From Blastocatellia bacterium (lineage in GTDB: Bacteria > Acidobacteriota > Blastocatellia > UBA7656), in assembly GCA_035275065.1 (NCBI GenBank), contig DATENM010000145.1, positions 89,851 through 113,850 of the forward strand: a stretch of 24,000 nt of DNA, in the 5' to 3' direction. Shown piece by piece: positions 3,948 to 24,000 of this stretch (positions are counted from its first letter, which is position 1; every line of letters starts with the position of its first letter). The notes below the pieces were generated by a model. The model did not search any database. It saw only the letters and a program-made list of their open reading frames with translations, and was not told the DNA's origin. The position numbers were made by a program, and so were the translations under genes.

Positions 3948-4229
3948 ATGCCAAGACATCAACACCTCATCGAAGAAGTGGGCGAGCTTGACCGACTGAT
4001 TTCAGTCATTGCGAGCGAAGTTGAATCCGAGCGCGCCGGCGACGGTCACGCCGAAGCCTTGCTGCGCGAGATGGAAGAGGCGCTCACCGAATTGCGCCTG
4101 GCGCGCGGCGTCCGCCTGATGTGGCTGAATGCCCAGGGCGAAGCACTGCCGACCGGAGCCGTACGCCGCAATGCCGGCGGCGCCATCAGCGTCGGCGGTT
4201 GGACGCGGGCTGGCCAGCGGGTCGCCTAA
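3948..4229 (+). CDS. Hypothetical small protein (93 aa)
   Basis: ATG preceded by AAGGA 8 nt upstream. Codon usage (GC3-rich, gaa/gag/ctg/gcc) resembles neighbouring genes. Predicted helical acidic N-terminal half. No recognisable motif. Lies 66 nt upstream of rpoD on the same strand. Confidence 0.45.
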   Translation: MPRHQHLIEEVGELDRLISVIASEVESERAGDGHAEALLREMEEALTELRLARGVRLMWLNAQGEALPTGAVRRNAGGAISVGGWTRAGQRVA

Positions 4230-4295
4230 ACTCAGTCTTAACGCCGCGCTGCAAAGCCGATCATCAGCCATTCTATCGCGCAGGGGAGATTCATC

Positions 4296-5987
<1,692 letters not shown>

Positions 5988-6015: not shown

Positions 6016-6067
6016 AAAACGGCTGAATCGAAGCTTGCACCGGCAAGCGATTCGATTCAGCCGTTTT
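6016..6067. terminator. Bidirectional rho-independent terminator between convergent rpoD and the zinc-ribbon protein gene
   Basis: aaaacggctgaatcga (6016-6031) pairs with tcgattcagccgtttt (6052-6067). Inner stem gcttgc/gcaagc (6033-6038 / 6043-6048) with loop accg. A4 on the left and T4 on the right give a U-tract in both orientations. The minus-strand TGA stop (6067-6069) abuts the stem. Confidence 0.8.
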
Positions 6068-7014
6068 CATTGGGCGCGAAAGCTCAGGTTGCGGGTTGCC
6101 GATAGGAACATCAGGCGGGAATAGCGCTCGAACTGGTCGCGGTTGTCTGTGGTCAGGCTCGACATCGCGACGGGCCGGTAGGTGATGCCTTTGCGTTTCA
6201 CGCCGCGCGCTTCGTTGTGGCTGCGCTCGGGCCAGGCGCGCGCGAGCAAGCGCCGTAGACGGGCGAAATCTTCGTCAACGAGGACTTGCGGCGCTGCTTT
6301 TTCGAGCGCGCGCAGGGCCGCGCGAAAATTAAGCTCGGTGCGAAATGACAGCGGCGCGACCAGCCCCGAATAATCGAAGCCGTCGGCGCGCAAGCGAAAG
6401 CTCTCTTCAAGCGAGCCGCCATAGACATCAAGCACGGCTTCGTCCGAGCGAAACTCTGCCGTCTCTAACACGCTCGCCGATTGCGTGCGCATGCCGCGCA
6501 GTCCTTCCGAATAATCTACGCGGTTCTGGCGCAGCGAGCCGACGACGATCACCCGCAGGGCTGATGCGGGAATGGTCAACACGCCGCCGCTGTGCTGTAC
6601 GACGACTTCATTATTTTTAATCTCAATGTGTCGGGCGCGGATCAATTCGCGCTCGACGGCCAGCTCTTCATCAGCAACGACGAATGCCGCCAGCCCGCAA
6701 TCGCGCACCAGGGCGGCAATCATTTCGGCCTCCTGCCGCGTCAGTGACCGCGCGATGGGCAATCGCTTGTTAGCCGCAACCATCTCGCTGGCCTCGCCGC
6801 TTTCAACCTTGAGCGCGGCGGCGAGCGCGGCGATGGCGGTTTCGCCGGCGGCCAGTCGCGGCGGTTCGAGAATCGTGTTGAAGGCGAGCTCGGCGGCGTC
6901 GAGGTTGCGTTGCGGCGGCGCGCTGGTCAGCTTGCTGATCGGCAGGGTCTCGCCGCAGTAAATGCAAGTGCCGCGCGCTGCCGCCGTGCGCCGCCGGCAA
7001 CGTGGGCAGTTCAT
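6067..7014 (-). CDS. Zinc-ribbon domain protein of unknown function (315 aa)
   Basis: The track ORF 6067..7632 is trimmed to the ATG at 7014-7012 (MNCPRCRR..x10..CIYCG, a zinc ribbon), because the upstream 206 codons run antisense through the 7105 gene and its promoter region and look non-protein-like. No motif recognised in the rest. A GTG one codon upstream is an alternative start. Confidence 0.65.
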   Translation of the reverse strand: MNCPRCRRRTAAARGTCIYCGETLPISKLTSAPPQRNLDAAELAFNTILEPPRLAAGETAIAALAAALKVESGEASEMVAANKRLPIARSLTRQEAEMIAALVRDCGLAAFVVADEELAVERELIRARHIEIKNNEVVVQHSGGVLTIPASALRVIVVGSLRQNRVDYSEGLRGMRTQSASVLETAEFRSDEAVLDVYGGSLEESFRLRADGFDYSGLVAPLSFRTELNFRAALRALEKAAPQVLVDEDFARLRRLLARAWPERSHNEARGVKRKGITYRPVAMSSLTTDNRDQFERYSRLMFLSATRNLSFRAQ

Positions 7015-7050
7015 CACATCTTGATTCAAGGCTTTCTCGCTTTCACTTTT

Positions 7051-7080
7051 TTGAGTCGGTGGGGCTGCGGCGATTATAGC
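7051..7080 (+). promoter_or_regulatory. Candidate sigma-70-type promoter for the 7105 gene
   Basis: TTGAGT (7051-7056), 18-nt spacer, TATAGC (7075-7080), about 25 nt upstream of the ATG at 7105. Same architecture as the candidate pgsA promoter (TTGACA-N18-TATAGT). Pattern match only. Confidence 0.3.
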
Positions 7081-7104
7081 ACAGCCGTGATAAGATGCGC
7101 TTGA

Positions 7105-8883
7105 ATGAATCTGCGCGACTGGCTCACTCGAAAGAACCTGATCATTACCGCCGTCATCCTCGGGGTGCTTGTCGCAACCGCCTGCTACTTCGCTTTGCGC
7201 AGGCCGCAGCCTGTGGAGATGGAGCGTTATGTTGCGGCGTCGTCGCTTGCCTATCTCGAAATCAATAACCTCGCGGATGTCGCCGATGGCTTGACTGGCA
7301 CACGGGCCTGGCGCGAGCTGGGGCCGGCGCTCGGGCTGTCGAGCCAGCTCCGACAGATTGGCTTGATGGCCGACCTCGTCGGGCGCACAGGACTCGGCCC
7401 CGAAGAAGTGGTGCTGGCGGGCCGCGCTCAATTGGCGCTGGCGCTCACCGATGTTGAAGCGCAGACCGGGCAGACTGACGAAGGGCCGTACCTGCACTTC
7501 AAGCCGCGACTGGCGTTGATTATCGAGACCCACGCCCGCCCGGCAACCGCCGCGCGTCTGGTCAACGACCGCGCCATCATCGTCGCGCAAAGAATCTATG
7601 GCATGACGGTGGCCCAGGAAGAAGGGGAGCACCAGGGCACGCGGCTGCTCATCTTTCGCGGCGCGAACCCCGACCGGCCACTGGTGGCGGCGGCGCTCGG
7701 CTCAGTCATCGTGTTGACCAATCACCTTGAAGCCATGAAGGCGACGCTCGACACGATTGCCGGGCGCGCGCCGGCGCTCGCCGAAGACCCAACGCTTGCG
7801 CGGCTCAAGCCCGATATGGCCGCGGGCGCAGCCGTCACTGCCTTTATTACCGAAACCGGCATCAACAAACTGATCGCCTTGTTGCCGCCGCTGGCCGCCA
7901 GTCGCTATGCCGCGGAACCCGAAACCGTCGCCTCCTTCACCGGCCTGCTTGAGCATATGGCCAGTCAGGCGGTTGCCGGCTTGCTCTACAGCGCCGAATT
8001 CAAGGACGGCGGCGTCGTGGATCGCTATCTCACGGCGTTGAAGCCGGGCATCGGCGAAGCCCTGACCGAAGCGCTGAAACCGGCACAGGGAGCCGGTTTC
8101 AAGTCACCGCAATTGATCCCCCGCAGTGCTGAAGAAGTGACGCTGCTGAACATCGAGCGCGCCGGCGAATTGCCTGAGCGCGCCCTGAAACAGCTCGCGC
8201 CCCACGTTGATATTGTCGCCGGCCTCGCCCTGCGCGAGTTCGTCATCAACCTGCGTAAGCAATACGGTATTGAAGGCGGCGAGTCGGTCGGCGATGCCAT
8301 CGGCCATGAAATCACCCTGATCAATCTCGGCGACGGCGGCTCGCAAGCCATGCTTTTGAGCGTCAAGGATAAAGACCGGCTCGCGCCCTTCATCACGCGC
8401 TACCTGACGCGCGGCGATGCGAAGATCACGACTGACAGTGTCGGCGGCACAGAGCTGCGCCTGTCGTCGAATGAAGATGGCCGCGCCGCCGCTTTCATCG
8501 GCAGCTATCTGGTGCTGGCGACCCAACCACAGATCACACAGTTGCTGGAGGCGCAAGGTGCCGGCAGTGTGGTGGCCGCGGATGAAAGACTGCAAACGGC
8601 GATGGCGCTGCGTCCGCCGGGCACTTCAATCGTTTCACTGAAGCCGGCAGACCGGCGGGCCGGCGAGCTGTTGCTCGCCGTTTCAAGGCTGACTCGCGTG
8701 ACCGATGGCTCGCGCGAGCTGTTGGAGCAAGAGCAGGTTCGCAGAGCTTTGGACGGCCTGCCGCCGACCGTCGGCTTTACAGAGTTCCGAGCCTATGGCA
8801 TCTACAACGAAACGCGCTCGGCCATCGGCAACTTCGGCTTGCTGGCATCGCTGGTCGGCGGCGGCGGGGACGCCGAGAAATGA
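7105..8883 (+). CDS. Membrane-anchored protein of unknown function, DUF3352-like
   Basis: 592 aa. N-terminal signal-anchor (LIITAVILGVLVATACYFAL). The mature part opens with a pattern I associate with DUF3352 proteins (..YVAASSLAYLEINNLADV.., later GLGPEEVVLAGRAQLALALTDVE). Family assignment is from memory, not from a search. Confidence 0.8.
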   Translation: MNLRDWLTRKNLIITAVILGVLVATACYFALRRPQPVEMERYVAASSLAYLEINNLADVADGLTGTRAWRELGPALGLSSQLRQIGLMADLVGRTGLGPEEVVLAGRAQLALALTDVEAQTGQTDEGPYLHFKPRLALIIETHARPATAARLVNDRAIIVAQRIYGMTVAQEEGEHQGTRLLIFRGANPDRPLVAAALGSVIVLTNHLEAMKATLDTIAGRAPALAEDPTLARLKPDMAAGAAVTAFITETGINKLIALLPPLAASRYAAEPETVASFTGLLEHMASQAVAGLLYSAEFKDGGVVDRYLTALKPGIGEALTEALKPAQGAGFKSPQLIPRSAEEVTLLNIERAGELPERALKQLAPHVDIVAGLALREFVINLRKQYGIEGGESVGDAIGHEITLINLGDGGSQAMLLSVKDKDRLAPFITRYLTRGDAKITTDSVGGTELRLSSNEDGRAAAFIGSYLVLATQPQITQLLEAQGAGSVVAADERLQTAMALRPPGTSIVSLKPADRRAGELLLAVSRLTRVTDGSRELLEQEQVRRALDGLPPTVGFTEFRAYGIYNETRSAIGNFGLLASLVGGGGDAEK

Positions 8884-8985: not shown

Positions 8986-9771
8986 CTATTGCCGGCGGCC
9001 TTCAGCCTTGACGGTCTCGGCGGGGAGGCCCGTGGTGGTTTTGCGGCGGCGGCGGCGCAGGATACGCACCCTGCGGCGCTCGCGCACTTCGATGCGGTCG
9101 CGCACCTTGCCATAGAACTTGGTGAAGTAGTCAACCATTGACCAGAGCGCGAAGAAGACGACGACCCACAACATCGCCCTGCCCGCGCCATAACAGAGGA
9201 CGCGGAAATCATCGAGCGTGATCGCTCGATTACTAATGACCGCGCCCAGCGTGCGCGCCGATTCCGAGAACGAGGCGAAGGCGATTTCGGGCTGCACGTG
9301 TGGCGGCGGTTGCAAGCCGGACGGGCCGCCCGGCACGCTGCCGGAGATCAACAGGGTGATGGCGATCACCTGCGTCAGCATTTTGAACTTGCCCTTCATC
9401 GAGGCGCTGATGGTGAAGCCTTCAGCCGAGGCAATCGAGCGCAATCCGGTGACGGCGAATTCGCGGCCGATGATGATGACGATGGCCCAGGCCGGGGCGA
9501 TGCGGTTTTCGACCAGTGAGATCAGCGCCGCCGAGATCAACAGCTTATCGGCGATGGGGTCGAGCAGGATGCCGAGCGTTGATACCTGGCCGCGCTTGCG
9601 GGCGAGGTAGCCGTCGAGCCAGTCGGTGATCGACGCGCCGACAAACAGCGCCAGCCCGAGGAACTGTTGCGGTACGTCGAACCAGTCGCTGGGGAACTTC
9701 GTCAGCAAGACGACGACCAGCAGCGGGACGATGAAGATTCTGGAGAGCGTGAGCGCGTTCGGCAGATTCAA
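8986..9771 (-). CDS. pgsA: CDP-diacylglycerol--glycerol-3-phosphate 3-phosphatidyltransferase (CDP-alcohol phosphatidyltransferase family)
   Basis: CDP-alcohol transferase motif DWLDGYLARKRGQVSTLGILLDPIADKL (D-x2-DG-x2-AR...G-x3-D-x3-D). Start moved to the TTG at 9771-9769, giving the canonical N-terminus (M)NLPNALTLSRI with AGGGA 8 nt upstream. The track start at 9894 is the TTG of a TTGACA -35-like hexamer. 261 aa, with an internal insertion and a very basic C-terminal tail. Confidence 0.85.
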   Translation of the reverse strand: MNLPNALTLSRIFIVPLLVVVLLTKFPSDWFDVPQQFLGLALFVGASITDWLDGYLARKRGQVSTLGILLDPIADKLLISAALISLVENRIAPAWAIVIIIGREFAVTGLRSIASAEGFTISASMKGKFKMLTQVIAITLLISGSVPGGPSGLQPPPHVQPEIAFASFSESARTLGAVISNRAITLDDFRVLCYGAGRAMLWVVVFFALWSMVDYFTKFYGKVRDRIEVRERRRVRILRRRRRKTTTGLPAETVKAEGRRQ

Positions 9772-9864
9772 GCGACTTATCCCTGAGCCGGTTTCGCGGG
9801 CACGAAAACCAACCGTGATTCGATTAAAATTAACGCGAGCAGCACATCTTTTGTTGGCAAGTTG

Positions 9865-9894
9865 ACTATATTGGCGGCCCGCGGTGGTTGTCAA
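9865..9894 (-). promoter_or_regulatory. Candidate sigma-70-type promoter of pgsA
   Basis: On the minus strand: TTGACA (complement of 9889-9894), 18-nt spacer, TATAGT (complement of 9865-9870). This implies an ~85-nt leader before the TTG start at 9771. Confidence 0.4.
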
Positions 9895-10071: not shown

Positions 10072-12078
10072 ATGTTGAACTGGATCAAGCGACTGTTCAA
10101 TCGGCGCGGCGCGCTCATCGCCGCAGGCATTGCGATTGTCCTCGCGCTGGCGGGGCTGTTGATTTATGTGGTCAGGCTGAATCGTCATATCAGCGCTGAA
10201 CAGGAAGCCGAAGCCGCCGCGCAAAAAATCACCGTTGAAGAGACGCGCTTGCGCCCGCCGGTGACGGACGGGCTGACGGTTTATCTGAACGCCGCTGATG
10301 CGAGGGCAACGGCGGTCTTTGCCGGCACGCGCTATCTGGCGACCTCAGGCGGGCTGATCGCGCTCGACGAGGGCGGCACGGTCAAACACCGCTACACCAC
10401 TTTCGATGGCCTGAGCGACAACGACCTGACGGCGCTGGCGGTCTTTCGTGATCGGCTCTATATCGGCACGGCAGCCAGCGGCTTGATGGCATTCGACGGC
10501 AATGGCTTCACCGGCTATCGCTTCGTCAAGCCGAAGGCGACGCGGGTGAGCGTGCTGACGGCGACAGAAAGCGAGTTGTTAATCGGCACACTCGACGGCG
10601 GCTTGTTCGAGTTTGATGGACAGCAACGCTTCACGCGCCGCTTCAATTCGGCTCCGGGAGCCGATTTCACGCGAGTGACCGCGGTGCTGCCGTTTGCTTC
10701 GCGGCTCTACATCGGCACACAGGACAGCGGGCTCTACATCTGGCGCGAAGGCCACATCGAGCACCTGACGACGAGCGACGGCTTGCCCTCACCGCGGGTC
10801 ACAGGGCTGGTCGCGCTGCCTTCGAGCGATTCGCAGTACGGCGGGCTCGCGGTAGCGACCGATTTCGGCGTCGTCGGCCTGAGCGATGCCAACGAGATCA
10901 AAGCCATCACCAATCGCCCGAACGTCACTTCGATTGCGGTGATCGGCGGGCGGCTGTTTGCCGGGCTGTTCAGCGGCGGCCTATTTGACATCAACGCCGA
11001 ACGGACGAAGTCGAGCCCGAACGAACCGCGTACCGGCCTGTCGGAAACGCCGGGCCTGCCGGCGAATGCGCCGACGACGGTCTTTGCCGATGATGGCGGA
11101 TTGTGGGCGCTGACGCGCGATGGCGCATTCGTGCGCGAGGCGGGGGCGGGCGGGCCGGCCTTCGAGCCGGTCGCGGCATCGCTGGTCAGCGAGCGCATCA
11201 TCACCGGCGACCACATCACCGGCGTGGCGCTCGATGGCGCCGCCCACCTGTGGGTCGGCTATTTCGACCGCGGCGCTGATGTGATCGCGCCGGAAACCAG
11301 CGAGCGCCTGGCGCACATCGAAGACGAGCGCGTCCGTGAAGTGAACTTCATTACTTTTGACCCGGCATCCGGGCAGACGCTGATTGCCACGTCGCGCGGC
11401 CTCGTCACTGTTGATGGGCGAAGGCAACAGACGGTGATGACCCGCGAAAAGAATGGCTTAATCAGCGATGCCATTGCTCACGTTTCTTTGATGACGGCAA
11501 ACACCTCGGCGGCGGGCGCGATGGTGCTGGCGACGGCAGGCGGCTTGACGGAAGTGGCGGGCGGGCGGGCGCGGTCGCTGACCTCGTTTCACGGCCTGTC
11601 GAGCAATCACCTGTATACGTCGGCGGCGGCGGGCTCGCGGCTCTTCGTCGGCAGCCTGGCGGGGCTGATCGAGCTTGAGGGCATGCGCGTCGTGCGAACC
11701 TACAAGACGTCGAACTCGCGCCTGTCACACGACTGGGTGACGGCGCTGGCGGAAGCCGAGGGCACCCTTTATGTCGGCACCAACGGCGGCGGCGTTGATG
11801 CGTTGCTGCCGACCGGCGAGTGGATCAGCTTTGCCAATGATCGCGATGTCGGCAAATTCGAAGTCAATCAGAACGCCATGTACTTTGACGGCGAGCGATT
11901 ATATGTCGGCACTAGCGATAAAGGATTATTGGTATATAATACGCGCGCGCGGAGTTGGAAACGGCTCAGCGCCGGCCTGCCGTCGCCGAGCGTGACGGCC
12001 ATCACAGGCGATGACCGATACGTTTATATCGGCACCATGAATGGCCTTGTCAGGATTGAGAAGCGAGTCGTCGGATAG
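10072..12078 (+). CDS. Membrane-anchored double beta-propeller protein (two-component-regulator-propeller / Reg_prop-like repeats)
   Basis: 668 aa. N-terminal signal-anchor (GALIAAGIAIVLALAGLLIYVV). About 14 repeats of the blade motif hydrophobic-(Y/W/F)-(I/V)-G-T-x2-G-L-x-x-(F/Y)-D, e.g. RLYIGTAASGLMAFDG, ELLIGTLDGGLFEFDG, RLYIGTQDSGLYIWREG, TLYVGTNGGGVDALL, RLYVGTSDKGLLVYN, YVYIGTMNGLVRIEK. No kinase or HTH output domain follows. Confidence 0.85.
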   Translation: MLNWIKRLFNRRGALIAAGIAIVLALAGLLIYVVRLNRHISAEQEAEAAAQKITVEETRLRPPVTDGLTVYLNAADARATAVFAGTRYLATSGGLIALDEGGTVKHRYTTFDGLSDNDLTALAVFRDRLYIGTAASGLMAFDGNGFTGYRFVKPKATRVSVLTATESELLIGTLDGGLFEFDGQQRFTRRFNSAPGADFTRVTAVLPFASRLYIGTQDSGLYIWREGHIEHLTTSDGLPSPRVTGLVALPSSDSQYGGLAVATDFGVVGLSDANEIKAITNRPNVTSIAVIGGRLFAGLFSGGLFDINAERTKSSPNEPRTGLSETPGLPANAPTTVFADDGGLWALTRDGAFVREAGAGGPAFEPVAASLVSERIITGDHITGVALDGAAHLWVGYFDRGADVIAPETSERLAHIEDERVREVNFITFDPASGQTLIATSRGLVTVDGRRQQTVMTREKNGLISDAIAHVSLMTANTSAAGAMVLATAGGLTEVAGGRARSLTSFHGLSSNHLYTSAAAGSRLFVGSLAGLIELEGMRVVRTYKTSNSRLSHDWVTALAEAEGTLYVGTNGGGVDALLPTGEWISFANDRDVGKFEVNQNAMYFDGERLYVGTSDKGLLVYNTRARSWKRLSAGLPSPSVTAITGDDRYVYIGTMNGLVRIEKRVVG

Positions 12079-12192
12079 CCTGCGAGCGCGAGCCAAACGC
12101 CCCTGCAACGTTGGCCCGCGCATTCAGGGCAAGCGTGATCGAATCACCACTTCCGCCTTCGGTTTTCGCGGGTGAGCGGCCCGCGCTTCAGG

Positions 12193-14684: not shown

Positions 14685-17600
14685 GTGCTTATGCGCAAAC
14701 GAATCTTTCTGACCGTCGCGATTGTCCTTTCGGTCGCTTCCCTTGCTGTTGCCACCCTGTTTGCACAGCGGGCGGCGCAGCGCGCGAAAACCTCAACTCC
14801 GAATGCTGCGGGTGGCCAGGCCACCGCCAAAGGCAAGCCGCCGGCGAATCGCAACCAGAGCGCCGCCACCGCGCCCTTGCGCCAGCCCGACCCGAATCGC
14901 GCCCCGCAAGCGGCGGTTGACGAAGCCCTCTACACCAAAGAAGAGTTCTTCGGCACTCAGGCGTCCGTCGCGCGGCCATATGCCCCGGCGCTTGAGCGCG
15001 TCGGCACCTTGCTTGTCCAGTATCCGAAAGATGCGCGATTGCACCTGCACGCGGCGCGGCTCTCTGAACGGCTCGGGCAATTCGATAAAGCCGCGACCGA
15101 GATGGCGCAATATGCCGACCTCCGCCGGCGCTCGCCCGATGCCTTGCGCCGGCTTGCGGTCTTCTATCACAACCGCGCCCGCTTCGCCGACGAAGTCAAA
15201 ACGCTTGTCGAGCTCGGCAAAGCCTTGCCGGTGACCGAGCGCGCACCCATCTATAAACAGGCCGCCGGTATCGTGCGCGCCTATTCGCTCAAAGAGTACA
15301 AGCCGGCAGATTTCTTCGCCGAGCTGGTCGCCGCCGACCCGTCGAATATTCAACCGGTCAAAGACTACGTTGAAGAGCTGCAACTCGCCGAGAATCGCAA
15401 AGAGGCGCTGGAAGTGCTGACGACCTTCCAGCCGAAGTTCGCCGGTCAACTGGCTTACTTCTTGAAGACCCGCGCCGCGATACTCGAAGCGCAAGGCGAC
15501 CGCCGCGCCGCCGAACAGGTTTATGACGCGGCCTTCGATCCGACGTGGCCGCGCGCCATCAGCGGCGATTATTACGAGCTGCTGCGCCGCTTCGGTCGCT
15601 ACCGCGCGGTGCGCCGTGGCTTGCAGGAGCGGGCGCGCACCGCGAGCGACCTCAACACCGTCGCGCGCCTGTTCAGCATCTATTCTTACGAAGGCAACTT
15701 CGAGCCGGCCTCGCGCCTGCTGCGCGACCTGGAAGCGCGCCGCGCCGGTCGCGCCTCGTCACGCCCTGCGACGACGGGCGGCAACGCACAGCCAGCAGCC
15801 GTGAGCGCGTCGTGGAATGGCCGCGAGCTTGAAACCGTCGCGGCATTGTTCGCCTCCGTAGGCGACTTCGATCAGGCGTCGCGCTACCTCTACACACTTT
15901 ACCTGACGGGCGGCTTGCAGCCCGGCAGCGCCTCGCGCGAAGAAGCCTTGCACCGGCTCTTCCGCGTCATGCTCGACGCCGCCGGCACGCCGACGCGGGT
16001 GGCGGCGGGCGACCTGTCGCTCTACAAAGACGTGGCGCAGGTAGACGCCCACCCGGGCTTTATGAACGGCGTGCTGTCGCTGATTCTTTCCGGCACCAAC
16101 CCGGCGAGCGAATATGCGACGCAAGAGAAAGCCGCGGCCAGCTATTTCAACCGCGCCTTCGCCTATCGCATCTTCACCGCATTCAAACAGGAGTACGCGC
16201 AGTCGAAGTACCTCGCAGACATGTACCTCGGCGTCACCGAAGTCTTCGCCGGCCTCGGCGAGCATCGGCTGGCGATTGAAGCGGGCCGCGAATTCCAACA
16301 GCTCTATCCGACCTCGCCGCATTACACGGACGTGTCGCTGCGCATCGCCGACGCCTACGTGGCGCTGAAAGACCGCGCCGGCGAGCGCGCCGTGCTGAAC
16401 GATTTGCTGGATCGCCTGGCGCGCTCGCGGCCCAAAGGGCGACCGCTGATCGCGACGACGGCGAAGCGCTGGACCTATGGCATCTCGCCGGCTTTTGACA
16501 AACTCGTGGACCGCATTCGCTATAACATCGAAGCCTACAGCGACACCTACGACCCGACCGAAGACAGCTCGGCAACCAGCTCGAACGAAGGCGACAGCGA
16601 CGTGGATGCGGACGAGCCGACCAACTTCGGCGATGAAAGCGACAAGCGCGGGCCGACCTACAGCAGCGTGCTTGAGCGTTACGTCGCGTCGCTTGCCGCC
16701 GATGAGAAGAAGACGGAAACGGTCACCTTCTTCTGGAATGAAATCCGCAAGCATCCGGGCGAAGAAGGTCTATACGAACGGTTCCTGCGCTGGCTCGGCT
16801 CGGCCGAGCTGGTCAACGAGCAGTTGAAGGCGTACAACACGGCGATTCGCCAGTTCGATTCCAACACCTGGTATCACCGGCTGGCGCGCTGGTATGTGCG
16901 GCAGAAGCGCGGCAGGGAATTGCAGCGTTATTCGCGGCAGCTCATCAGCATCTTTGACGAAGAAGACATCACTGAATACCTGTTGCGCTTTGCCGGTTAC
17001 GGCGCGTCGGCGGCGGGCGATTCGCTGAACTGGGATCAGAAGCTGGCCTTCGACCTTTACAGTTACGCGCACCAGCGCTTCCCGCAAAACCTTTTCTTCG
17101 TGCGCGGCATGCTGACTTACCTGGCGAATAACAAAGAGGTTGGGCCGTGGGCGCAGCTATCGGCGCAGTATTACTTCGCCGACCGCTCGATCCGCGAGCC
17201 GTTCCTCGCCTACCTGTCGAGCAACAACCAACTGCGCGACCGCTACCAGAAAGCCAGAAGTCAGGAGTCAGGAGTCAGGAGTCAGAATACCGGCGCAACC
17301 GTCACGACTTATCACGTCTTTGCGGCAGACGCGGCGCTATGGCTGTCGCATCACGACGAGGCGATTGATGCCTATCGGCAACTGACGGCACTCTATCCGG
17401 GCGAGCCGCAGTATGCCGACCGGCTGGCTGACCTGACGCGCTCGTTCGGCCAGCGCTCCGACAAGCTCTACGAAGAGTCCGCGCAGGTGCTGTCGCACAT
17501 GGCCGAAATCTACCCGTCGGAGCATTCGTACCGCATCAAGGCCGGTGAAGCCTATGCCGAGCTGGGCGATTTCAAGCGCGCCGGCGCTGAGTGGAACAAG

Positions 17601-20600
17601 CTGACCCAGCTTGAGCCGGGCGAGCGCAACACCTATCTCGAAGTCGCGACGGTCTTCTGGGACTACTATCAATTCGATGATGCGCTGCGCGTCTTCAAGG
17701 AACTTCGCAGCCAGACCGGCGACCCGACCATCTATGCCTATCGCATGGGCGCGGTCTATGAAGGCAAGGGCGACATTGACGCGGCCATCGCCGAATACGT
17801 CAAGGTGTTGCCGGAACCCGGCGACGGGCGCAGCACCGTGGCCAAACGCCTGGCGCAACTTTCCAGACGCGCCGGCCTCGCTGACAAGATCGCCGCCGCT
17901 TATAACCAGGCGCGCACGGCTAAACCGGACGACTGGCAGTTAGTGATTGGCTACGCGCTCTACAACGCCGAGCGCGACCATCAGGCCGAGGCGCTCGCGG
18001 GCTTGCGCACGGAAGTATCGCGCTCATCAAACGTCGAGTTTCTCGAAAGCGTGCGCGATCTCTTCCAATATATCTTGCGGCCCGAAGACGAGCAGCAGGT
18101 CATCGCGCGCTTGACTCAGGTGGCGCGCGACGAGCGCGAAGCGATGACCTATCGCTTGCAGCTCGCGGCCTTCCTGGAACGCCACAATCAGGTGGACGAG
18201 GCGATCAAGAACATCGACAAGCTGGTCGCCGATTACCCTACGAACGTCGGCGTCGTCGAAGAAGCCTCGCAGTTCTACTGGCGCGCAGGCTTGCTCGACC
18301 GGGCGCTCGATCTCTACAAGCGGACGCTCGCCAGGGCGCAGGGGCCGAACCGCCGATTGCTGACCTTGCAGTACGCTCGTCGCTTGAGTGAAGCCAATAA
18401 GCTCACGGACGCCGAAGCGACGCTGCGCGCTTTCTACAACGAGAACCGCAGCGATACGGAAGTTTTTTCGGAGCTGGCGCGCACGCTCGGAGCCGAGAAC
18501 AAGATGAACGACCTGGCGGCGCTTTATCAGGACGCCTTCAAGGACGTGAAAGAATCGGGGCTCACCGGCGACGACGCCAAAGCGCAGGTCGCCGATCTGC
18601 GCGCCGGGTTGATTCGCACCTACACGGCGCTCGGCAAGTTCAACGAAGCCGTGGACCAGCACATCGAGATCATCAACCTCTTCCCCGAAGACGCCGAGCG
18701 GCTGGCCACGGCTTACGAGTACGCCGAGGCGCACAACCTGCTCGACCGGCTGACGGCTTACTACGAGAAGCTGACGAAAGAGTCGTATAAGAACTATCGC
18801 TGGCAGGTGGTGCTGGGCCGCGTCTACGAGCGGCGCGGCAACCTGGCGGGCGCGACCGAGCAGTATCGCAACGCCGTCACCAACGAGCCGGAGCGCACCG
18901 ATTTTCGGCTGACGCTGGCGAACCTGCTGACCCGGCAGCGGCGCTACGACGACGCCATCACCGTCTTGCGCGAGGGCTGGCAGTTGGCGGGCCGCGACCC
19001 ATCGTGGCTGACAGAGGTGGCGCGCATACAGGTGTTACAGGGCAAGCGCGACGATGCGGTGCAGACCTTGCGGCAGGCGCTCGCTTCCAAGAAAGAGACC
19101 AAGGTCGCAGATCAAATCGTCGTCGCCCAGCGGCTCGCTTCGTGGGGCCTGTACGCCGAAGCCGTGCGCATCTATGAAACGGCGCTCGCGGCTTATCCCA
19201 AGGTGATGAAGGACGAATACCTCGGCGGCGATGCCATCAGCGGTTACGTACAGGCGCTGGTTCGGACACAGCCGGCGGGGCAGGTCTATCAAAAGCTCGC
19301 GCGCATGCGCTCGCAGTACGCCGCCATCGGCAGTAACTCGTCGGACACGGACAGCTATCGCGCCAAGAACGTCGTGCAGTATATCGATAGCGCCTTGCGA
19401 ACAGACTTTGCCCGCGGCGTGATCGATTACGCCGGCTCGCAGGATGCTGCCGCCGTCGCGCAGGCGCTCACCGCCGAGACGGCGAAGCTGACGGCTTATA
19501 CGGATGCCGACGAGCTGCGGCGCTATCTCGGCATTGCTCGCTCCGCCAATCTGGTTGAAGTCGAAGAGCGATTGCAGACGCGTTTGAAGGACGTGGCCTA
19601 CGAGGGCCGCCCGAAAAATGCGCCGCAGCCGACCACGCAGGACACCAGCTATTACAGCGAGCTGCGCGCCCTGGTGGCGTTTTATGATCGCCACGCGGCT
19701 TACGCCAAGGCCGCCGAGGTAATCGCCGGTGAATTGAAGCGCGACCCGTACAAAGATCGCTTCGATTATCAAAACCAGATTGCCACCCAGTACCGATTGG
19801 CAGGCGACACGACGCGCGAGCTGGAATCGTTGCGCGCGGCCTATCAGAGCGCCAGCGGCGCTGAAGTGACGACTAACACGGACTGGGTCGAGCGCTATCT
19901 GACCTTGCTCTATGCGGCGAACCAGCGCGACGAGCTGGAACGCATCGCCGCCGCCGACAGCCCTTATCAACTGCAACTCGTCAACTTCTTGATCGAGAAG
20001 AATGACAAGGCGCTCGCCCGCCGGGCCATCAACAGCGCGGCGCGCTCGGTCGCCTGGAAGGCGTCGCGCAGCGGCGAAGTCGGCCTGTTTATGCGCGACA
20101 CCTCGGCGGAAACCGAAGGGTTCTTCAAGCGCGCCCTCGACATCAAGAGCATCGGCGACATGCTCAACCGCAAGGTGGATGGCAACCAGACGCTGGTCGG
20201 CGATGACTGGTTCGTGGCGGCGCGGAATTATGGTTACTGGCTGGGGCTGACGCCGCAGCGCGGCAAAGAGAGCCTCGACTTTATCGCCGGCGAGATCGAA
20301 GGCCACCCTTCGAGCGAGAAGGCACAGCTTGAGCTGGCGGCCTACTATCTCGACCACAAAGACCTGACGCGGGCGGCGGCGCACACGGAGCTTGCCGCGG
20401 AGCTGGCGCCGGCGAGCACCGATGTCATCATCGCTCGCGGGTTACTGGCGATGGCGCGCGGCGACCGCAAGGCCGCCAGCGAACAGTGGGGCCGTTTGTT
20501 GAGCGGGCGCGTGTCGGTCGCCGATGCGCAGACCTACTTGAAGCTGATGGCCGATAACAACATGCTGCGCGAAGCGCTGCCGCCGCTGCAAAACTTCATC

Positions 20601-22517
20601 GTGAGTTTCGTCAACTATGCGACGCGGCGCAAGAACAGTGATGGCGATGTCAGCGGCCTCGATCCGCTGGTGCGCGAGATCGCGAATCGAGCGCGCGGCG
20701 ACGCCAGGCTCACTGGTGACGTGGCGACTTTCTTCCACACCACGATGACCGAGCTTGGCGAGAATACCTCGATTGGCGAGTTGCTGATCGGTGAGAACCT
20801 GTTGCCCGAATCGGCGCTGGCCAGCATCTATCGCGCCGTCCATCAACGCTTGAGCGATCATGCGGCGGCGACGTTTGGCACCAGTGGTTATGAGACCGGC
20901 GAAGCGTCGCGGGCGCTCGGCGACTTCCGCCGCCAGTTCATCGATTACATGATTCGCAACCGCCAGTTCGACGAAGCGCGGCTGCTGGTGGCGACGATTA
21001 AGCATGAGCTGTCTGACGCACGGCTGGCGCTCAAGGCGCAGGGCGGCGACGACAGCGGCCCGACCGATGCAGAGACGCGTTACAACTGGGTGCCGCTGGC
21101 ATCGGCGCTGATCGAGCTGCGCGCCGGCAAAGATGCCGCCAAAGCCATTGCCGAGCTGCGGATGTATTGCGGGCTGGACAGCGCCGAGGGCAAGCCGTCG
21201 GGAGTTGAGCAAGAAGACGGCAGTCGCGTTCACGGCGAATGTATTAACGCTTACAATCTGCTGCTCGCCGAAGGCCGCGAAGCCGACGCCGATGCGTTGC
21301 TCTATGACGCTTATCGCGTGGCGGCGCGGTCGCGGGCGATTGACGAAGGCAGCCTCGCGGGGCTGGCCGAAATCGAAGCGCGCCGTAATCACCCGGAAGA
21401 GGCGTCGCGCTGGCTGCGCTTGCTGGTCGAGCGTTCAACCGACAACCTGCGCGCCCTGCAACTGGCCGCCGAAACCGCCGCCCGCATCGCGCATTACAAT
21501 GAAGCGATTGATTTCCGCGAGCAACTGGCGCGTGCCAATCCTGACGACGCGACCAACCGGCTAGAGCTGGCGCGGGCGATTGCCGCTTCCGGCAAGCCCG
21601 CTGATGCGCTCGAACGGATTGCGGCCTTAATTACAGAACGCGCGACGCCGAACCGCATCCGAGCGCAGGCCGCCGAAACCGTGGCCGACCTGGTTCGCGC
21701 TGACCGCTCGCTCGCTTCGCGTGCCGCATCGCTCTTTGAGCAGAAAGCCGCGCAGGGCGACGCCGGCGCATTGCTGGCGAGTGCAGCGGCGAGCGAAGCG
21801 GCGGGCAACGCCGGCGAAGCGCGCGCCGCGCTTTCGCGCATCACCGCGGGGTCGCTGGCGGCGGTGGCGCAACTGAAGCTCGGCGTCATCGCGCTTGCCG
21901 CGAACAATCAGCCAGAGGCGACGGCGAGCTTCGAGCGCGCGCTCTACCTGGACGCCGATGGCGAAGTCACCGAATCGGTGACCTACGCGATGGCCGGCCC
22001 GCGCGCCCAACTGATCGCGCTCTACAGCCGCGCCTCGCGCGACCTGGCGGCGGTGCGGCTTGCCGAAGAGGGCGGTGATTCAGGCAGCGAGCAGGACAAG
22101 CGCGCGCTGCTTAGCACAGCCGTTCGCCGGGCGCTCACCGCAGAGAATCAGCAGGCGAATAATGCAGAGGTCGAAGTTTCGTTCCAGCCGTCAATGGACG
22201 TGGCGCGGGCGCGCAGCAAAGGCTTGCGCACCATCGCCGAGCTGAACGACGCGGCGGTCGCACGGCTGCGGGTTGATCTGGTCGCGGCGCTCGTCGAATC
22301 GGCGGCGCGGCTCGGACAGTTGGATCGCGCCATCGCGCTCGAACGGCTGCGCGCCATCGAAGCGCGCAAGCCTGAGGAGAAGACCGCGATTGAAAAACGG
22401 CTCGCCGAGCTGCTGGCCGCCGAACAGGCACGGCAGGCGCGCGGCGCGCAGCTCTTGCGCATCGATCAGCAGAACACGTCGGGCGCGATCTTCACCGCGC
22501 GGGTGATCGGAAGATAG
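14685..22517 (+). CDS. Giant (2610 aa) exported TPR-like alpha-solenoid repeat protein
   Basis: Single uninterrupted 7.8-kb ORF with consistent GC3-rich codon usage. N-terminal signal or anchor (RKRIFLTVAIVLSVASLAVATLFAQRAA). Low-complexity linker, then dozens of TPR-like helix pairs (e.g. YRIKAGEAYAELGDFKRAGAEWNKLTQLEP; AYRMGAVYEGKGDIDAAIAEYVKVL; WQVVLGRVYERRGNLAGATEQYRNAVTNEP; LELARAIAASGKPADALERIAAL). Acidic disordered insert around 16541-16650. Start is GTG 14685 or ATG 14691 (AGGTG just upstream). Confidence 0.9.
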   Translation: MLMRKRIFLTVAIVLSVASLAVATLFAQRAAQRAKTSTPNAAGGQATAKGKPPANRNQSAATAPLRQPDPNRAPQAAVDEALYTKEEFFGTQASVARPYAPALERVGTLLVQYPKDARLHLHAARLSERLGQFDKAATEMAQYADLRRRSPDALRRLAVFYHNRARFADEVKTLVELGKALPVTERAPIYKQAAGIVRAYSLKEYKPADFFAELVAADPSNIQPVKDYVEELQLAENRKEALEVLTTFQPKFAGQLAYFLKTRAAILEAQGDRRAAEQVYDAAFDPTWPRAISGDYYELLRRFGRYRAVRRGLQERARTASDLNTVARLFSIYSYEGNFEPASRLLRDLEARRAGRASSRPATTGGNAQPAAVSASWNGRELETVAALFASVGDFDQASRYLYTLYLTGGLQPGSASREEALHRLFRVMLDAAGTPTRVAAGDLSLYKDVAQVDAHPGFMNGVLSLILSGTNPASEYATQEKAAASYFNRAFAYRIFTAFKQEYAQSKYLADMYLGVTEVFAGLGEHRLAIEAGREFQQLYPTSPHYTDVSLRIADAYVALKDRAGERAVLNDLLDRLARSRPKGRPLIATTAKRWTYGISPAFDKLVDRIRYNIEAYSDTYDPTEDSSATSSNEGDSDVDADEPTNFGDESDKRGPTYSSVLERYVASLAADEKKTETVTFFWNEIRKHPGEEGLYERFLRWLGSAELVNEQLKAYNTAIRQFDSNTWYHRLARWYVRQKRGRELQRYSRQLISIFDEEDITEYLLRFAGYGASAAGDSLNWDQKLAFDLYSYAHQRFPQNLFFVRGMLTYLANNKEVGPWAQLSAQYYFADRSIREPFLAYLSSNNQLRDRYQKARSQESGVRSQNTGATVTTYHVFAADAALWLSHHDEAIDAYRQLTALYPGEPQYADRLADLTRSFGQRSDKLYEESAQVLSHMAEIYPSEHSYRIKAGEAYAELGDFKRAGAEWNKLTQLEPGERNTYLEVATVFWDYYQFDDALRVFKELRSQTGDPTIYAYRMGAVYEGKGDIDAAIAEYVKVLPEPGDGRSTVAKRLAQLSRRAGLADKIAAAYNQARTAKPDDWQLVIGYALYNAERDHQAEALAGLRTEVSRSSNVEFLESVRDLFQYILRPEDEQQVIARLTQVARDEREAMTYRLQLAAFLERHNQVDEAIKNIDKLVADYPTNVGVVEEASQFYWRAGLLDRALDLYKRTLARAQGPNRRLLTLQYARRLSEANKLTDAEATLRAFYNENRSDTEVFSELARTLGAENKMNDLAALYQDAFKDVKESGLTGDDAKAQVADLRAGLIRTYTALGKFNEAVDQHIEIINLFPEDAERLATAYEYAEAHNLLDRLTAYYEKLTKESYKNYRWQVVLGRVYERRGNLAGATEQYRNAVTNEPERTDFRLTLANLLTRQRRYDDAITVLREGWQLAGRDPSWLTEVARIQVLQGKRDDAVQTLRQALASKKETKVADQIVVAQRLASWGLYAEAVRIYETALAAYPKVMKDEYLGGDAISGYVQALVRTQPAGQVYQKLARMRSQYAAIGSNSSDTDSYRAKNVVQYIDSALRTDFARGVIDYAGSQDAAAVAQALTAETAKLTAYTDADELRRYLGIARSANLVEVEERLQTRLKDVAYEGRPKNAPQPTTQDTSYYSELRALVAFYDRHAAYAKAAEVIAGELKRDPYKDRFDYQNQIATQYRLAGDTTRELESLRAAYQSASGAEVTTNTDWVERYLTLLYAANQRDELERIAAADSPYQLQLVNFLIEKNDKALARRAINSAARSVAWKASRSGEVGLFMRDTSAETEGFFKRALDIKSIGDMLNRKVDGNQTLVGDDWFVAARNYGYWLGLTPQRGKESLDFIAGEIEGHPSSEKAQLELAAYYLDHKDLTRAAAHTELAAELAPASTDVIIARGLLAMARGDRKAASEQWGRLLSGRVSVADAQTYLKLMADNNMLREALPPLQNFIVSFVNYATRRKNSDGDVSGLDPLVREIANRARGDARLTGDVATFFHTTMTELGENTSIGELLIGENLLPESALASIYRAVHQRLSDHAAATFGTSGYETGEASRALGDFRRQFIDYMIRNRQFDEARLLVATIKHELSDARLALKAQGGDDSGPTDAETRYNWVPLASALIELRAGKDAAKAIAELRMYCGLDSAEGKPSGVEQEDGSRVHGECINAYNLLLAEGREADADALLYDAYRVAARSRAIDEGSLAGLAEIEARRNHPEEASRWLRLLVERSTDNLRALQLAAETAARIAHYNEAIDFREQLARANPDDATNRLELARAIAASGKPADALERIAALITERATPNRIRAQAAETVADLVRADRSLASRAASLFEQKAAQGDAGALLASAAASEAAGNAGEARAALSRITAGSLAAVAQLKLGVIALAANNQPEATASFERALYLDADGEVTESVTYAMAGPRAQLIALYSRASRDLAAVRLAEEGGDSGSEQDKRALLSTAVRRALTAENQQANNAEVEVSFQPSMDVARARSKGLRTIAELNDAAVARLRVDLVAALVESAARLGQLDRAIALERLRAIEARKPEEKTAIEKRLAELLAAEQARQARGAQLLRIDQQNTSGAIFTARVIGR
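17255..17288 (+). repeat. Tandem heptanucleotide repeat (AGTCAGG)x3 + AGTCAGA inside the giant CDS
   Basis: cagaAGTCAGGAGTCAGGAGTCAGGAGTCAGAat; repeat core 17259-17286 (28 nt), translated in frame as RSQESGVRSQN. The flanks CAGA... and ...AGTCAGAAT are identical to the reverse complement of 3566-3585, which has 2 units instead of 4. Confidence 0.9.
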
Positions 22518-22529
22518 AAGGTGATAGTT

Positions 22530-24000
22530 ATGAAAACCACAAGAGCGTTTGTCGTTCTCGTCCTTGTCATTGCGGCGCTGTGGCACGCGTCAGACGGCCA
22601 GCCGCAGCGGCCCCTTGCCGATCAACTGCGATTGGCCGGGGCGCTGCCGCGCGGCGCGCTCGTTTATGTGCAGGCGCGCGACCTGTCGGCGTTGATGAAG
22701 GCGTGGATGGCTTCGACCGTGCGCAACAAGTTTTACGCCAGCCCGAGCTACACCGCCTTCTCGAAGTCGCGCGTCTTTTTGAAATTCCAAGACCGTCGCG
22801 GCGACTTTGAAAAGGCGCTCGGCTTCGGCATTGACGAAGACCGGCTGACGGAGCTAGCGGGCGGCGCGTCGGCAGTGGCGGTCTATGACATCGGCAAGCT
22901 CGACATGGCCTTTGTCACCGAACTGCCGCGCGAGCGGGCGCTGCTGACCACGATGTTCAAAAGGCTGCCGCAGTTTCAGGAGCGCAATGCCGACGGCGGC
23001 ATCTACTACGCCAAGGACGTGCAGACCGACGGCGGCAGGCTCAGCCAGCAATTCTGTTTTGCGCACGTCGGCGGCAAGTTGATCGTGACGACGAGCGAAG
23101 GCTTGATGATCCGCGCCCTCGCCGCGGTCAAGACCAACGGCGCGGATTCGCTGCTCGGCGACGTGATGGCGCTGGCCGAGCAGGCCAAAGGTTTCGCCAC
23201 GCACGACCTGACGATCTGGCTCGATCAGGCGCGCTTGAACCGCGACCGCCTGTTCAACAGCTACTGGATTCATCAGAACGTCGGCAAAGAGTTGAACGGC
23301 ATCGAAAGCGGCTTGCTCGACCTGCGCATCACGGCGCAAGGGTTGACCGAGCAGCGTTACTTCAAGTTGGCGGCCGGGGGCCGGGGGCCGGGGGCCGGTT
23401 CGCAGGCCGATGGTGAAGCGGGCTCGTTGAAAGGCAGTGACGCGGCGGCGCTGTTGAAGTTCGCGCCCGCCGACGCCCAGCTCGCAGAGATTCATCCACA
23501 GGTCAAAGCCGAAGACCTGGCCGATACCGTGACCAGTGCGCTGTTCGGCCACCTGCCGACCGCCGAACCGACGCGGCCCGATGTGTCGCGCCCGTCTTCC
23601 TCGGATGACGACAGCGGCGGGCGCACAGAGCGTTACAGCCAGCTCGATGCGCGCTTTGACGTCGACGTTGACGACGAGCAAGCGCCGCCGCGCGGCAACG
23701 CGCCGGCTCGCAAAGGCAAGGCAGAGGCCGCGCCGCAGACCGGGCCGACTTCGTTCGTCGCCGCGATGACCAGGCTCGCGCCGGTGGCGGTATGCGAGCT
23801 GACGCGCTCGAAAGCCGATCCCGACCGGCCATTCGTTCACTTCGAGCGCGCCGTGGTTGTTGAGATGAAGAGCGAAGCGGCGATAGACCGCGCGGCGCTC
23901 GAACGCGCCATCGTCGAAGAGATGCGGGCGCGTTTCGTCGTCGCCGGCGTAGACCCGCGCTTCACCTGGCAGGATGACGCTGGCGTCCGCGTGCTCGGCC
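22530..24000 (+). CDS. Secreted protein of unknown function, DUF3352-like (partial; runs off the window end)
   Basis: Not in the ORF track because no stop falls in the window. Hand translation from ATG 22530 gives 490 codons with no stop. AAGGTGA SD (22518-22524) lies 5 nt upstream, directly after the giant gene's TAG (22515-22517). Signal peptide MKTTRAFVVLVLVIAALWHA|SD. The mature N-terminus (LPRGALVYVQARDLSALMKAW ... LAGGASAVAVYDIG) parallels the 7105 product. Codon usage is typical of the window. Confidence 0.8.
   Translation, partial: MKTTRAFVVLVLVIAALWHASDGQPQRPLADQLRLAGALPRGALVYVQARDLSALMKAWMASTVRNKFYASPSYTAFSKSRVFLKFQDRRGDFEKALGFGIDEDRLTELAGGASAVAVYDIGKLDMAFVTELPRERALLTTMFKRLPQFQERNADGGIYYAKDVQTDGGRLSQQFCFAHVGGKLIVTTSEGLMIRALAAVKTNGADSLLGDVMALAEQAKGFATHDLTIWLDQARLNRDRLFNSYWIHQNVGKELNGIESGLLDLRITAQGLTEQRYFKLAAGGRGPGAGSQADGEAGSLKGSDAAALLKFAPADAQLAEIHPQVKAEDLADTVTSALFGHLPTAEPTRPDVSRPSSSDDDSGGRTERYSQLDARFDVDVDDEQAPPRGNAPARKGKAEAAPQTGPTSFVAAMTRLAPVAVCELTRSKADPDRPFVHFERAVVVEMKSEAAIDRAALERAIVEEMRARFVVAGVDPRFTWQDDAGVRVLG
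23372..23398 (+). repeat. Tandem heptanucleotide repeat (GGCCGGG)x~3.9 inside the CDS
   Basis: ggccggg ggccggg ggccggg ggccgg, perfect, 27 nt, encoding GGRGPGAG within a Gly/Ala-rich linker. Contains three G5 runs separated by CC. Confidence 0.85.

Follow-up and report, generated by a model that had tools for sequence, protein, structure and literature searches.

A giant TPR-like solenoid protein, probably exported, and its conserved four-gene cluster in Acidobacteriota

The giant gene and its product

We analyzed a 24,000-nucleotide stretch of DNA from a Blastocatellia bacterium (contig DATENM010000145.1; hereafter the window), the forward strand of which carries a 7.8-kb open reading frame (ORF) for a giant protein built of tetratricopeptide repeat (TPR)-like helices. 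The giant gene lies in a cluster of four genes, all on the same strand:

10072..12078 (+), Reg_prop-type beta-propeller protein of 668 residues with a transmembrane anchor (MLNWIKRLFNRRG-ALIAAGIAIVLALAGLLIYVV-RLNRH); Pfam Reg_prop, 32.6 vs 20.4 bits
12232..14595 (+), secreted protein of about 787 residues with VIT, VWA and C-terminal immunoglobulin (Ig)-like domains; Pfam VIT, 80.5 bits, and VWA_3, 66.3 bits
14691..22517 (+), giant gene, 2608-residue all-helical TPR/alpha-solenoid protein; stop codon 22515-22517
22530..24000 (+), fourth gene, which runs past the window end; secreted protein of about 615-630 residues with a signal peptide, MKTTRAFVVLVLVIAALWHASDGQ...

Counted from the GTG codon at position 14685, the giant ORF (14685..22517, +) encodes 2610 residues, and its translation is free of internal stops. 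Because the homologues open with MRKR or MKRK, the gene probably starts at the ATG codon at position 14691, which would yield a product of 2608 residues. By our own calculation, random codons at the base composition of the window would be stops at a rate of about 2.8%, and 2,610 open codons would occur by chance with a probability of about 1e-32. The GC content of the ORF by codon position is 0.67/0.46/0.79, and GC content is even over the whole window. The ratio of nonsynonymous to synonymous substitution rates (dN/dS) is 0.08, 0.11 and 0.15 in comparisons with relatives of 97%, 89% and 82% identity, and when eight blocks of 326 codons are taken one by one, it stays within 0.04 to 0.18. The giant ORF is a real gene under strong purifying selection from end to end. 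We attach next to no probability to the alternative that it is an artefact, whether by gene fusion, by mis-assembly or as a pseudogene in decay, given that hundreds of independent assemblies carry full-length collinear homologues and that purifying selection is uniform along the gene. No tandem repeats of consequence were detected at the DNA level in the giant gene, so that collapse of repeats during assembly is of no concern. A frameshift or assembly error is likewise ruled out by one record that is 97% identical to the giant protein (L003) and by more than 100 full-length homologues of 2488-2686 residues.

Along the chain, the giant protein can be divided into the following regions, in which confidence is given as the pLDDT (predicted local distance difference test) of AlphaFold2 (AF2) models:

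14691..14765 (+), N-terminal export signal or signal anchor, residues 1-25, MRKR followed by IFLTVAIVLSVASLAVATLFA; hydrophobic run common to homologues
14766..14942 (+), low-complexity basic linker rich in Pro, Ala, Asn and Gln, residues 26-84; variable save for a DPNRAPQ motif
14943..17330 (+), N-terminal conserved helical module, residues 85-880; most conserved part, TPR signal sub-threshold
16008..16115 (+), conserved segment within this module, residues 440-475, GDLSLYKDVAQVDAHPGFMNGVLSLILSGTNP; AF2 unable to place it
16551..16646 (+), acidic disordered insert DPTEDSS...DESDK, residues 621-652; pLDDT 26-37
17331..19190 (+), canonical Pfam-detectable TPR region, residues ~880-1500; Pfam, PrsT/MamA/PilW-like, OGT and designed consensus TPR (CTPR) matches
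19191..22514 (+), C-terminal alpha-solenoid, residues 1501-2608; Pfam signal almost nil, helical in AF2

Four Pfam models match above their gathering thresholds, namely TPR_14 (63.1 vs 23.5 bits), TPR_19 (50.6 vs 25), TPR_8 (30.2 vs 25.7) and ARM_TT21_5th (38.8 vs 27.8). Most of the best TPR stretches fall within residues ~880-1500, with a single weak match near residues 96-152; two poorly annotated portions of the protein searched separately against Pfam gave only borderline or sub-threshold TPR signal. The top NCBIfam match, PrsT (TIGR02917), covers residues 926-1289 only and reaches 124.7 bits against a cut-off of 312.2, and the other NCBIfam matches (MamA, YbgF, PilW and the BepA TPR arm) are generic TPR similarities below their cut-offs. 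Sequence searches of the PDB returned only the OGT TPR domain and CTPRs. When enzymatic or other functional domains were sought with Pfam, NCBIfam, the PDB and Foldseek, only TPR or alpha-solenoid matches were obtained. No PADLOC defence model matched any of the four cluster proteins and the sole defence-family trace in the giant protein, GapS6b in NCBIfam, scored 14.9 bits against a cut-off of 850; given the lack of PADLOC matches, a defence-system reading was dropped.

AF2 models were made for residues 85-1284 and 1409-2608 using family alignments of 23-25 sequences. The C-terminal model (pLDDT 84.8, predicted TM-score [pTM] 0.78) contains 65 helices and the N-terminal model (pLDDT 77.7, pTM 0.40) contains 63, and neither has a single strand. 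Most of these roughly 128 helices are 12-18 residues long. Between the two models lie residues 1285-1408, which from about residue 1307 onward are inside Pfam, NCBIfam and PDB TPR matches. The pTM of 0.78 suggests that the C-terminal half adopts a defined, fairly compact arrangement. Foldseek comparisons of both models with the PDB returned IFT139/TTC21B, Ski3, Ctr9, Naa15 and OGT with E values down to 2e-15, at TM-scores of about 0.1-0.3, mostly below 0.2 and with a maximum of 0.29 for the C-terminal half; we read these model-based matches as likeness of fold class and not as a specific relationship or orthology. Since Pfam thresholds are exceeded and the models show a helix-pair solenoid without any other fold, the giant protein belongs to the TPR repeat superfamily. 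It is an irregular alpha-solenoid of roughly 65 helix pairs without a recognisable catalytic domain. We also considered an internal duplication relating the N-terminal and C-terminal halves and rejected it, as the profile-profile match between them is weak and TPR-like (83% probability) and no tandem repeats are found in the DNA.

Conservation is uneven along the chain. The first 50 residues align with 35% identity and 15% gaps, and the module at residues 85-880 is mostly 65-81% identical over 110 homologues, less so at variable spots. Two stretches, residues 440-475 and 734-781, are among the most conserved of the family yet are modelled with low confidence. In the first, G440, Y445, D447, D452, G460, L462, S463, L464 and L466 are invariant, and pLDDT is below 50 (residues 356-391 of the N-terminal model). 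Both are candidate sites of interaction with partners. The N-terminal model also contains low-confidence loops that are variable, at residues 356-372 and at the acidic insert within residues 592-653; the alignment block around this insert (residues 601-650) is one of the variable spots. The insert carries a net charge of −10 to −14 among members of the Blastocatellia clade, against about 0 to −5 among relatives of the Terriglobia type. We considered the insert as a family-wide ligand of the metal-ion-dependent adhesion site (MIDAS) of the neighbouring VWA protein, which is unsupported as a general mechanism because the insert is acidic in the Blastocatellia clade only. The sole two cysteines among the 2608 residues, C2160 and C2184 (21168-21242), stand on either side of a low-confidence disordered loop and may form a clade-specific disulfide. 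Both cysteines are kept in the Blastocatellia consensus and absent from clade B.

A preliminary description of this DNA, made from the letters alone, had reported an uninterrupted 7.8-kb ORF for an all-helical, TPR-like protein devoid of a recognisable catalytic domain, and these claims are borne out: the frame has no internal stops and is under selection along its whole length, the models of residues 85-1284 and 1409-2608 are free of strands, and the domain and fold searches led only to TPR or solenoid proteins. Of the checks that it had proposed, structure prediction of the two segments yielded helices only; the full-length homologues, the dN/dS values and the lack of DNA repeats gave no sign of frameshift or assembly error. 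The Pro/Ala/Asn-rich linker that it had noticed is present at residues 26-84. The acidic disordered insert is also present, at residues 621-652; its strongly acidic character is restricted to the Blastocatellia clade and does not extend to the family.

Family, conserved neighbours and export signals

A word-indexed search with the giant protein returned 203 clusters at E<=1e-5. The best 120 of these include more than 100 full-length proteins of 2488-2686 residues with 38-97% identity, and those bearing a name are all from Blastocatellia or Acidobacteriota. We aligned 110 full-length members, which are collinear with almost no gaps; identity in this alignment is 65-81% in the N-terminal two-thirds and 36-69% in the C-terminal third. 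A scan of one genome per GTDB species revealed 322 stretches encoding relatives, the best 80 of which provide the clade and label figures given here. They are mostly from Blastocatellia, including Pyrinomonadaceae and one Chloracidobacterium metagenome-assembled genome (MAG), and fall into three clades (A, B and C) at about 60%, 37% and 30% identity, all with proteins of 2520-2690 residues. A few are labelled Clostridia, Heliomicrobium or Actinomycetota; we regard these labels as placeholders or as products of mis-binning.

With the module at residues 85-880 as query, HMMER was run exhaustively against 1.84 billion representatives and gave 519 clusters, of which 222 reach E<=1e-30. Among the best 150 of the 519, the complete proteins measure 2,200-2,800 residues and have the module starting at residue ~45-90; no short protein with the module is among them. 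Seeding a search with a 2357-residue member gave 396 clusters, some of which are named Bryobacterales, Terriglobia, Terriglobales or Acidiferrales. End-to-end homologue alignments number in the hundreds, with 27-97% identity. The family thus spans Acidobacteriota (Blastocatellia, Terriglobia and Bryobacterales), with every complete member giant (2,200-2,800 residues). No member bearing the name of a cultured strain was found, and a literature search on TPR and VWA proteins and giant genes of Blastocatellia and Acidobacteria yielded no paper on this giant-protein family. Homologues are named "tetratricopeptide repeat protein" or bear misleading automatic names in databases.

Two MAGs each carry two copies of the giant gene, L058 and L067 in JBFLVQ01, and L041 and L047 in DATIFP01. 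The two copies of MAG010 belong to different clades, with 41% and 29% identity to the protein of the window; a VIT-VWA gene lies upstream of both and a propeller gene upstream of L067. This arrangement suggests that paralogues of the whole cluster exist.

We next examined the genomic context of the giant gene at 78 loci with up to 10 kb of flanking sequence on each side, using tblastn and all-against-all clustering; the denominators below are the loci with enough sequence. Only three neighbours are kept on the same strand in all three clades, down to 29% identity. The VIT-VWA gene (about 800 residues) is located directly upstream of the giant gene at 52 of 55 loci, and a propeller gene (about 680 residues) is found upstream at 42 of 49. 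Directly downstream, the gene for the protein of about 620 residues is present at 40 of 43 loci. At the locus of the 2357-residue relative (L079), the named closest relatives of which are Terriglobia and Bryobacterales, all four genes are present in this order, and their stop and start codons overlap. Three loci have no flanking partners, and in two of these a different VWA protein is encoded right after the giant gene. Pairing with a VWA protein is thus a recurrent feature of the giant protein. The alternative VWA protein has 535-573 residues and is encoded at L059:17720-19327 and L051:8919-10640; these loci belong to a paralogous subclade with no VIT-VWA gene upstream.

Within the cluster of the window, a promoter scan gave 2 hits against 2.6 in shuffled sequence and a terminator scan gave 22 against 14.4 ± 3.9, with no convincing candidate for a terminator between genes. 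In the window, only 95 nt separate the VIT-VWA gene from the giant gene; in many relatives (L002, L012, L036 and L047 among others) this spacer extends over 0.6-1.9 kb. At L002:9384-9999 it contains a 77-residue ORF and a PIN-domain gene, which look like a toxin-antitoxin pair that was inserted there. Insertions seem to be tolerated in this spacer.

The N-terminus of the propeller protein is a transmembrane anchor in N-in orientation. By sequence, it matches designed propellers in the PDB as well as the periplasmic sensor domains 3v9f and 4a2l of Bacteroides hybrid two-component systems, and it also has a weak PorZ-like match. The ORF of the VIT-VWA protein opens at the GTG codon at position 12172, with the ATG at 12232 as its likely start, and the product has a clearly cleavable signal peptide (...PVAAQA|QSGVLIP). 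The protein resembles the inter-alpha-trypsin-inhibitor heavy chain (ITIH): in the PDB, it aligns with ITIH1 (6fpy) over residues 40-618 with an E value of 3e-24 and with ITIH4 at 2e-27. Its MIDAS (D-x-S-x-S, T and D) shows no variation among the 54 orthologues compared, save for one T-to-S change. The VIT-VWA protein is more conserved than the giant protein, with 56% vs 38% identity in the same genome pair. No sortase or PEP-CTERM sorting signal was found at its C-terminus, which ends in Ig-like domains. The fourth gene starts 12 nt past the stop codon of the giant gene. Its product is 51% and 33% identical to those of genes in the same position at two other loci, where full-length copies are available (L002:17934-19781 and L001:17704-19602). 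Searches of Pfam, NCBIfam and the PDB returned no match for this protein, even as a 28-sequence profile, and it appears to represent an undescribed family across Acidobacteriota. We also asked whether it might have diverged from a copy of the DUF3352 protein encoded nearby and rejected this idea, as we detected no relatedness between the two.

All four proteins of the cluster have N-terminal signal or anchor sequences. In the giant protein, MRKR is followed by about 20 hydrophobic residues, and 319 of 346 large homologues have a hydrophobic stretch of about 19 residues that begins close to residue 6; those without it are mostly truncated or mis-started sequences. In these homologues, the median flank charge is +3 on the N-terminal side and 0 on the C-terminal side. 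In clades B and C, short hydrophobic regions (h-regions) end in AXA-like motifs (..SLSPQA|DT and ..PQHAA|E). In the clade of the window, an h-region of about 20 residues is followed by a basic flank of +4 to +6. A low number of cysteines, here two in 2608 residues, fits an exported protein. The family-wide N-terminal segment, the signals and anchors of the neighbours and the paucity of cysteines together support an extracytoplasmic location for the giant protein. The export signal assumed in the preliminary description is matched by the hydrophobic segment, present in 319 of 346 homologues, with its median N-flank charge of +3. A secreted solenoid of this size was called unusual there; the protein is no one-off, being a member of a phylum-wide family whose complete homologues all measure 2,200-2,800 residues, and a larger bacterial TPR scaffold, the cytoplasmic GltI, is known.

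Proposed role and comparison with known systems

On balance, we favour a reading in which the giant protein is a Sec-exported, non-enzymatic scaffold that, together with the three proteins encoded beside it, organizes a complex in the envelope. The solenoid of about 65 TPR-like helix pairs would be exported by Sec and either remain tethered to the inner membrane by its N-terminal segment or be freed by signal peptidase. It would then most likely provide the structural base for an assembly of four proteins outside the cytoplasm, the other members of which would be the anchored Reg_prop propeller, the secreted VIT-VWA protein and the secreted protein of about 620 residues. The VIT-VWA partner would bind a ligand through its MIDAS. 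We infer that the four proteins bind one another physically, with the solenoid as scaffold, from the phylum-wide gene order, from the stop and start codons that overlap in one relative, and from the conservation of the giant protein position by position and in length. This latter conservation also suggests constraint on much of the surface of the solenoid. An extended binding platform, as proposed in the preliminary description, is supported as the most plausible role. More speculatively, the assembly could handle a polymer of the envelope, such as a polysaccharide; glycans are bound by relatives of the propeller (sensors of Bacteroides hybrid two-component systems and PorZ) and by ITIH.

Several points weigh against this scaffold. 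No propeller gene lies upstream at 7 of 49 loci, and at three loci both flanking partners are absent. Co-regulation, instead of a physical complex, could account for the conserved synteny. According to the positive-inside rule, the basic flank that follows the hydrophobic segment in the clade of the window (+4 to +6) is ambiguous and could disfavour translocation. Finally, the glycan idea derives from properties of distant relatives and is speculative.

Three other roles have to be weighed. We consider it unlikely that the giant protein is a periplasmic TPR scaffold for secretion of exopolysaccharide or another surface polymer, like BcsC, PelB, PgaA, AlgK or PrsT. PrsT is indeed its top NCBIfam match, some databases name homologues "cellulose synthase operon protein C", the partners have glycan-binding relatives, and GT2/GT4 glycosyltransferase genes lie 8 kb upstream in one relative. 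However, the PrsT score of 124.7 bits is well under the cut-off of 312.2, the database labels are automatic TPR-based names, the C-terminal 1200 residues are all helix with no beta-barrel, and no synthase, glycosyltransferase, exosortase or Wza/Wzc gene was found among the conserved neighbours. An even more doubtful proposal is that of a membrane-tethered cytoplasmic scaffold, inserted N-out/C-in, with a solenoid organizing cytoplasmic partners as GltI does. Such a topology would agree with the flank of +4 to +6 in the clade of the window, which is more basic than usual for exported proteins, and GltI is a precedent for a cytoplasmic giant bacterial TPR scaffold (PMC11761067). Against it stand the family-wide charges of the flanks (+3 on the N-terminal side, about 0 or −1 on the C-terminal side), the AXA-like cleavage motifs behind the short h-regions of clades B and C, and the signal peptides or N-in anchors of all three conserved neighbours, as well as the lack of any Agl/Mot-type motor or other Glt gene in the conserved neighbour clusters.

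We find it very improbable that the giant protein serves as an adaptor or regulator of an envelope protease, like LbcA for CtpA, NlpI for MepS/Prc or the TPR arm of BepA. LbcA is among the Foldseek matches, there is a weak match to the BepA TPR region, JGI names many homologues "predicted Zn-dependent protease", and a 1,161-residue S8 peptidase is encoded about 2.7 kb downstream at 20 Blastocatellia-clade loci. This peptidase neighbour is clade-specific, though, being absent from clades B and C; the giant protein itself has no peptidase domain, the LbcA and BepA matches amount to generic TPR similarity, and 2,600 residues is about five times the size of any known adaptor.

The exported scaffold that we favour would work most like known large TPR scaffolds, and its nearest bacterial analogue appears to be the Glt system of Myxococcus. 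GltI (AgmK) of Myxococcus xanthus is a 3,822-residue cytoplasmic TPR scaffold of the Agl-Glt gliding machinery, a system that combines this giant protein with the periplasmic TPR pillars GltC, D and E and the VWA adhesin CglB (PMC11761067). Both giant proteins comprise thousands of residues folded almost entirely into TPR-like helices, and both are proposed multi-site scaffolds that would work with a VWA protein in an envelope-associated machine. They differ in that GltI is cytoplasmic and 3,822 residues long, whereas the giant protein described here has an export signal or anchor and exported neighbours. Neither an Agl motor (AglRQS) nor Glt genes were found within 10 kb on either side of the giant gene.

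BcsC, PelB, PgaA, AlgK and PrsT are exported TPR solenoids that serve as periplasmic platforms for binding proteins or polymers, a role similar to the one proposed for the giant protein, which is two to three times longer. Membership in the PrsT family was rejected because of the sub-threshold score (124.7 < 312.2 bits) and because the first 2,159 residues are devoid of cysteine, which leaves no lipobox. A TPR-porin of the BcsC/PgaA/PelB type was also rejected, as the C-terminal 1200 residues are all helix and no BCSC_C or porin model of Pfam matches. The eukaryotic TPR/HAT scaffolds IFT139/TTC21B, Ski3, Ctr9 and Naa15 are long irregular TPR solenoids that hold multi-subunit complexes, and they give the best structural matches to both halves in Foldseek, with E values of 1e-9 to 1e-15. 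They are, however, cytoplasmic or nuclear and half the size, with TM-scores mostly of 0.1-0.2 and identities of 10-13%.

The Bat operon is similar in that VWA-domain and TPR-domain envelope proteins are encoded together. Its hallmarks are a MoxR AAA+ ATPase and a DUF58 protein. A Bat-type operon was rejected, since both MoxR and DUF58 are absent from the genes of the window and from the conserved neighbour clusters of the 78 loci. Moreover, the VWA partner here is a soluble ITIH-type VIT-VWA protein and not a membrane-anchored protein such as BatA or BatB. This partner is closest in kind to ITIH1/4 and the VIT-VWA module of PARP4; it aligns with ITIH1 over VIT, VWA and beyond, with a complete MIDAS. 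It differs from ITIH in being bacterial and in having extra C-terminal Ig-like domains, with no sortase or PEP-CTERM signal. To our knowledge, no bikunin or chondroitin-type partner has been described for it.

GltI measures about 1100 Å for its 3,822 residues (PMC11761067). If scaled in the same way, the extended giant protein would be several hundred Å long. A typical periplasm is narrower than that, which implies that the solenoid would run alongside the membrane, be coiled or traverse the envelope. We put forward, somewhat more as a possibility than as an expectation, that the cluster encodes a previously undescribed, phylum-wide envelope machine of Acidobacteriota, either structural or serving to handle a polymer, with no counterpart in model bacteria, in which a solenoid of about 2,600 residues positions a MIDAS protein, a glycan-sensor-like propeller and a protein of novel fold.

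The TPR solenoid fold and its general role as a scaffold are already familiar. What was previously undescribed is the giant format of a predicted exported solenoid, its strict length conservation, its spread across Acidobacteriota and the four-gene cluster with ITIH-like and family-less partners. Acidobacteriota are among the most abundant bacteria in soil, and their cell biology has been little studied experimentally. A cluster of about 4,700 residues is kept in order over three classes, and the length of the giant protein is held within roughly 10% at less than 30% identity; this pattern of conservation points to a large, strongly constrained and so far undescribed envelope structure. Should the four proteins indeed form a complex, cryo-electron tomography and genetics in culturable Acidobacteria would have a defined target, the giant protein would exemplify a very long TPR solenoid that is naturally exported, and ITIH-type VIT-VWA proteins would gain a first bacterial context. 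If the giant protein is instead a passive scaffold of modest importance, our analysis still provides a useful family definition, with no surprise in kind. It gives a lead into unexplored acidobacterial envelope biology that stays within known protein logic.

Other genes of the window

No RNA genes or tRNAs were found in the window. Beyond the four-gene cluster, three more neighbours are conserved, in clade A only: a CDP-alcohol phosphatidyltransferase, a DUF3352 protein and the downstream S8 peptidase. In the window, the DUF3352 protein (7105-8883) and the phosphatidyltransferase (8986-9894, −) are encoded upstream of the cluster, as they are at 26 and 27 clade A loci, respectively; they could represent a lineage-specific extension of the cluster or plain local synteny. 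A long ORF on the reverse strand (6067-7632, −) overlaps the DUF3352 gene. It is kept in clade A as a gene for only about 320 residues, and its true start is for this reason probably well downstream of the listed one. Another long reverse-strand ORF (4002-4826, −) overlaps rpoD (4296-5987), has no family match and is probably a spurious high-GC ORF. Finally, positions 1710-3506 encode a 598-residue protein that combines a protein kinase domain and a PP2C phosphatase domain in one chain, and that occupies the same relative position at several clade A loci.

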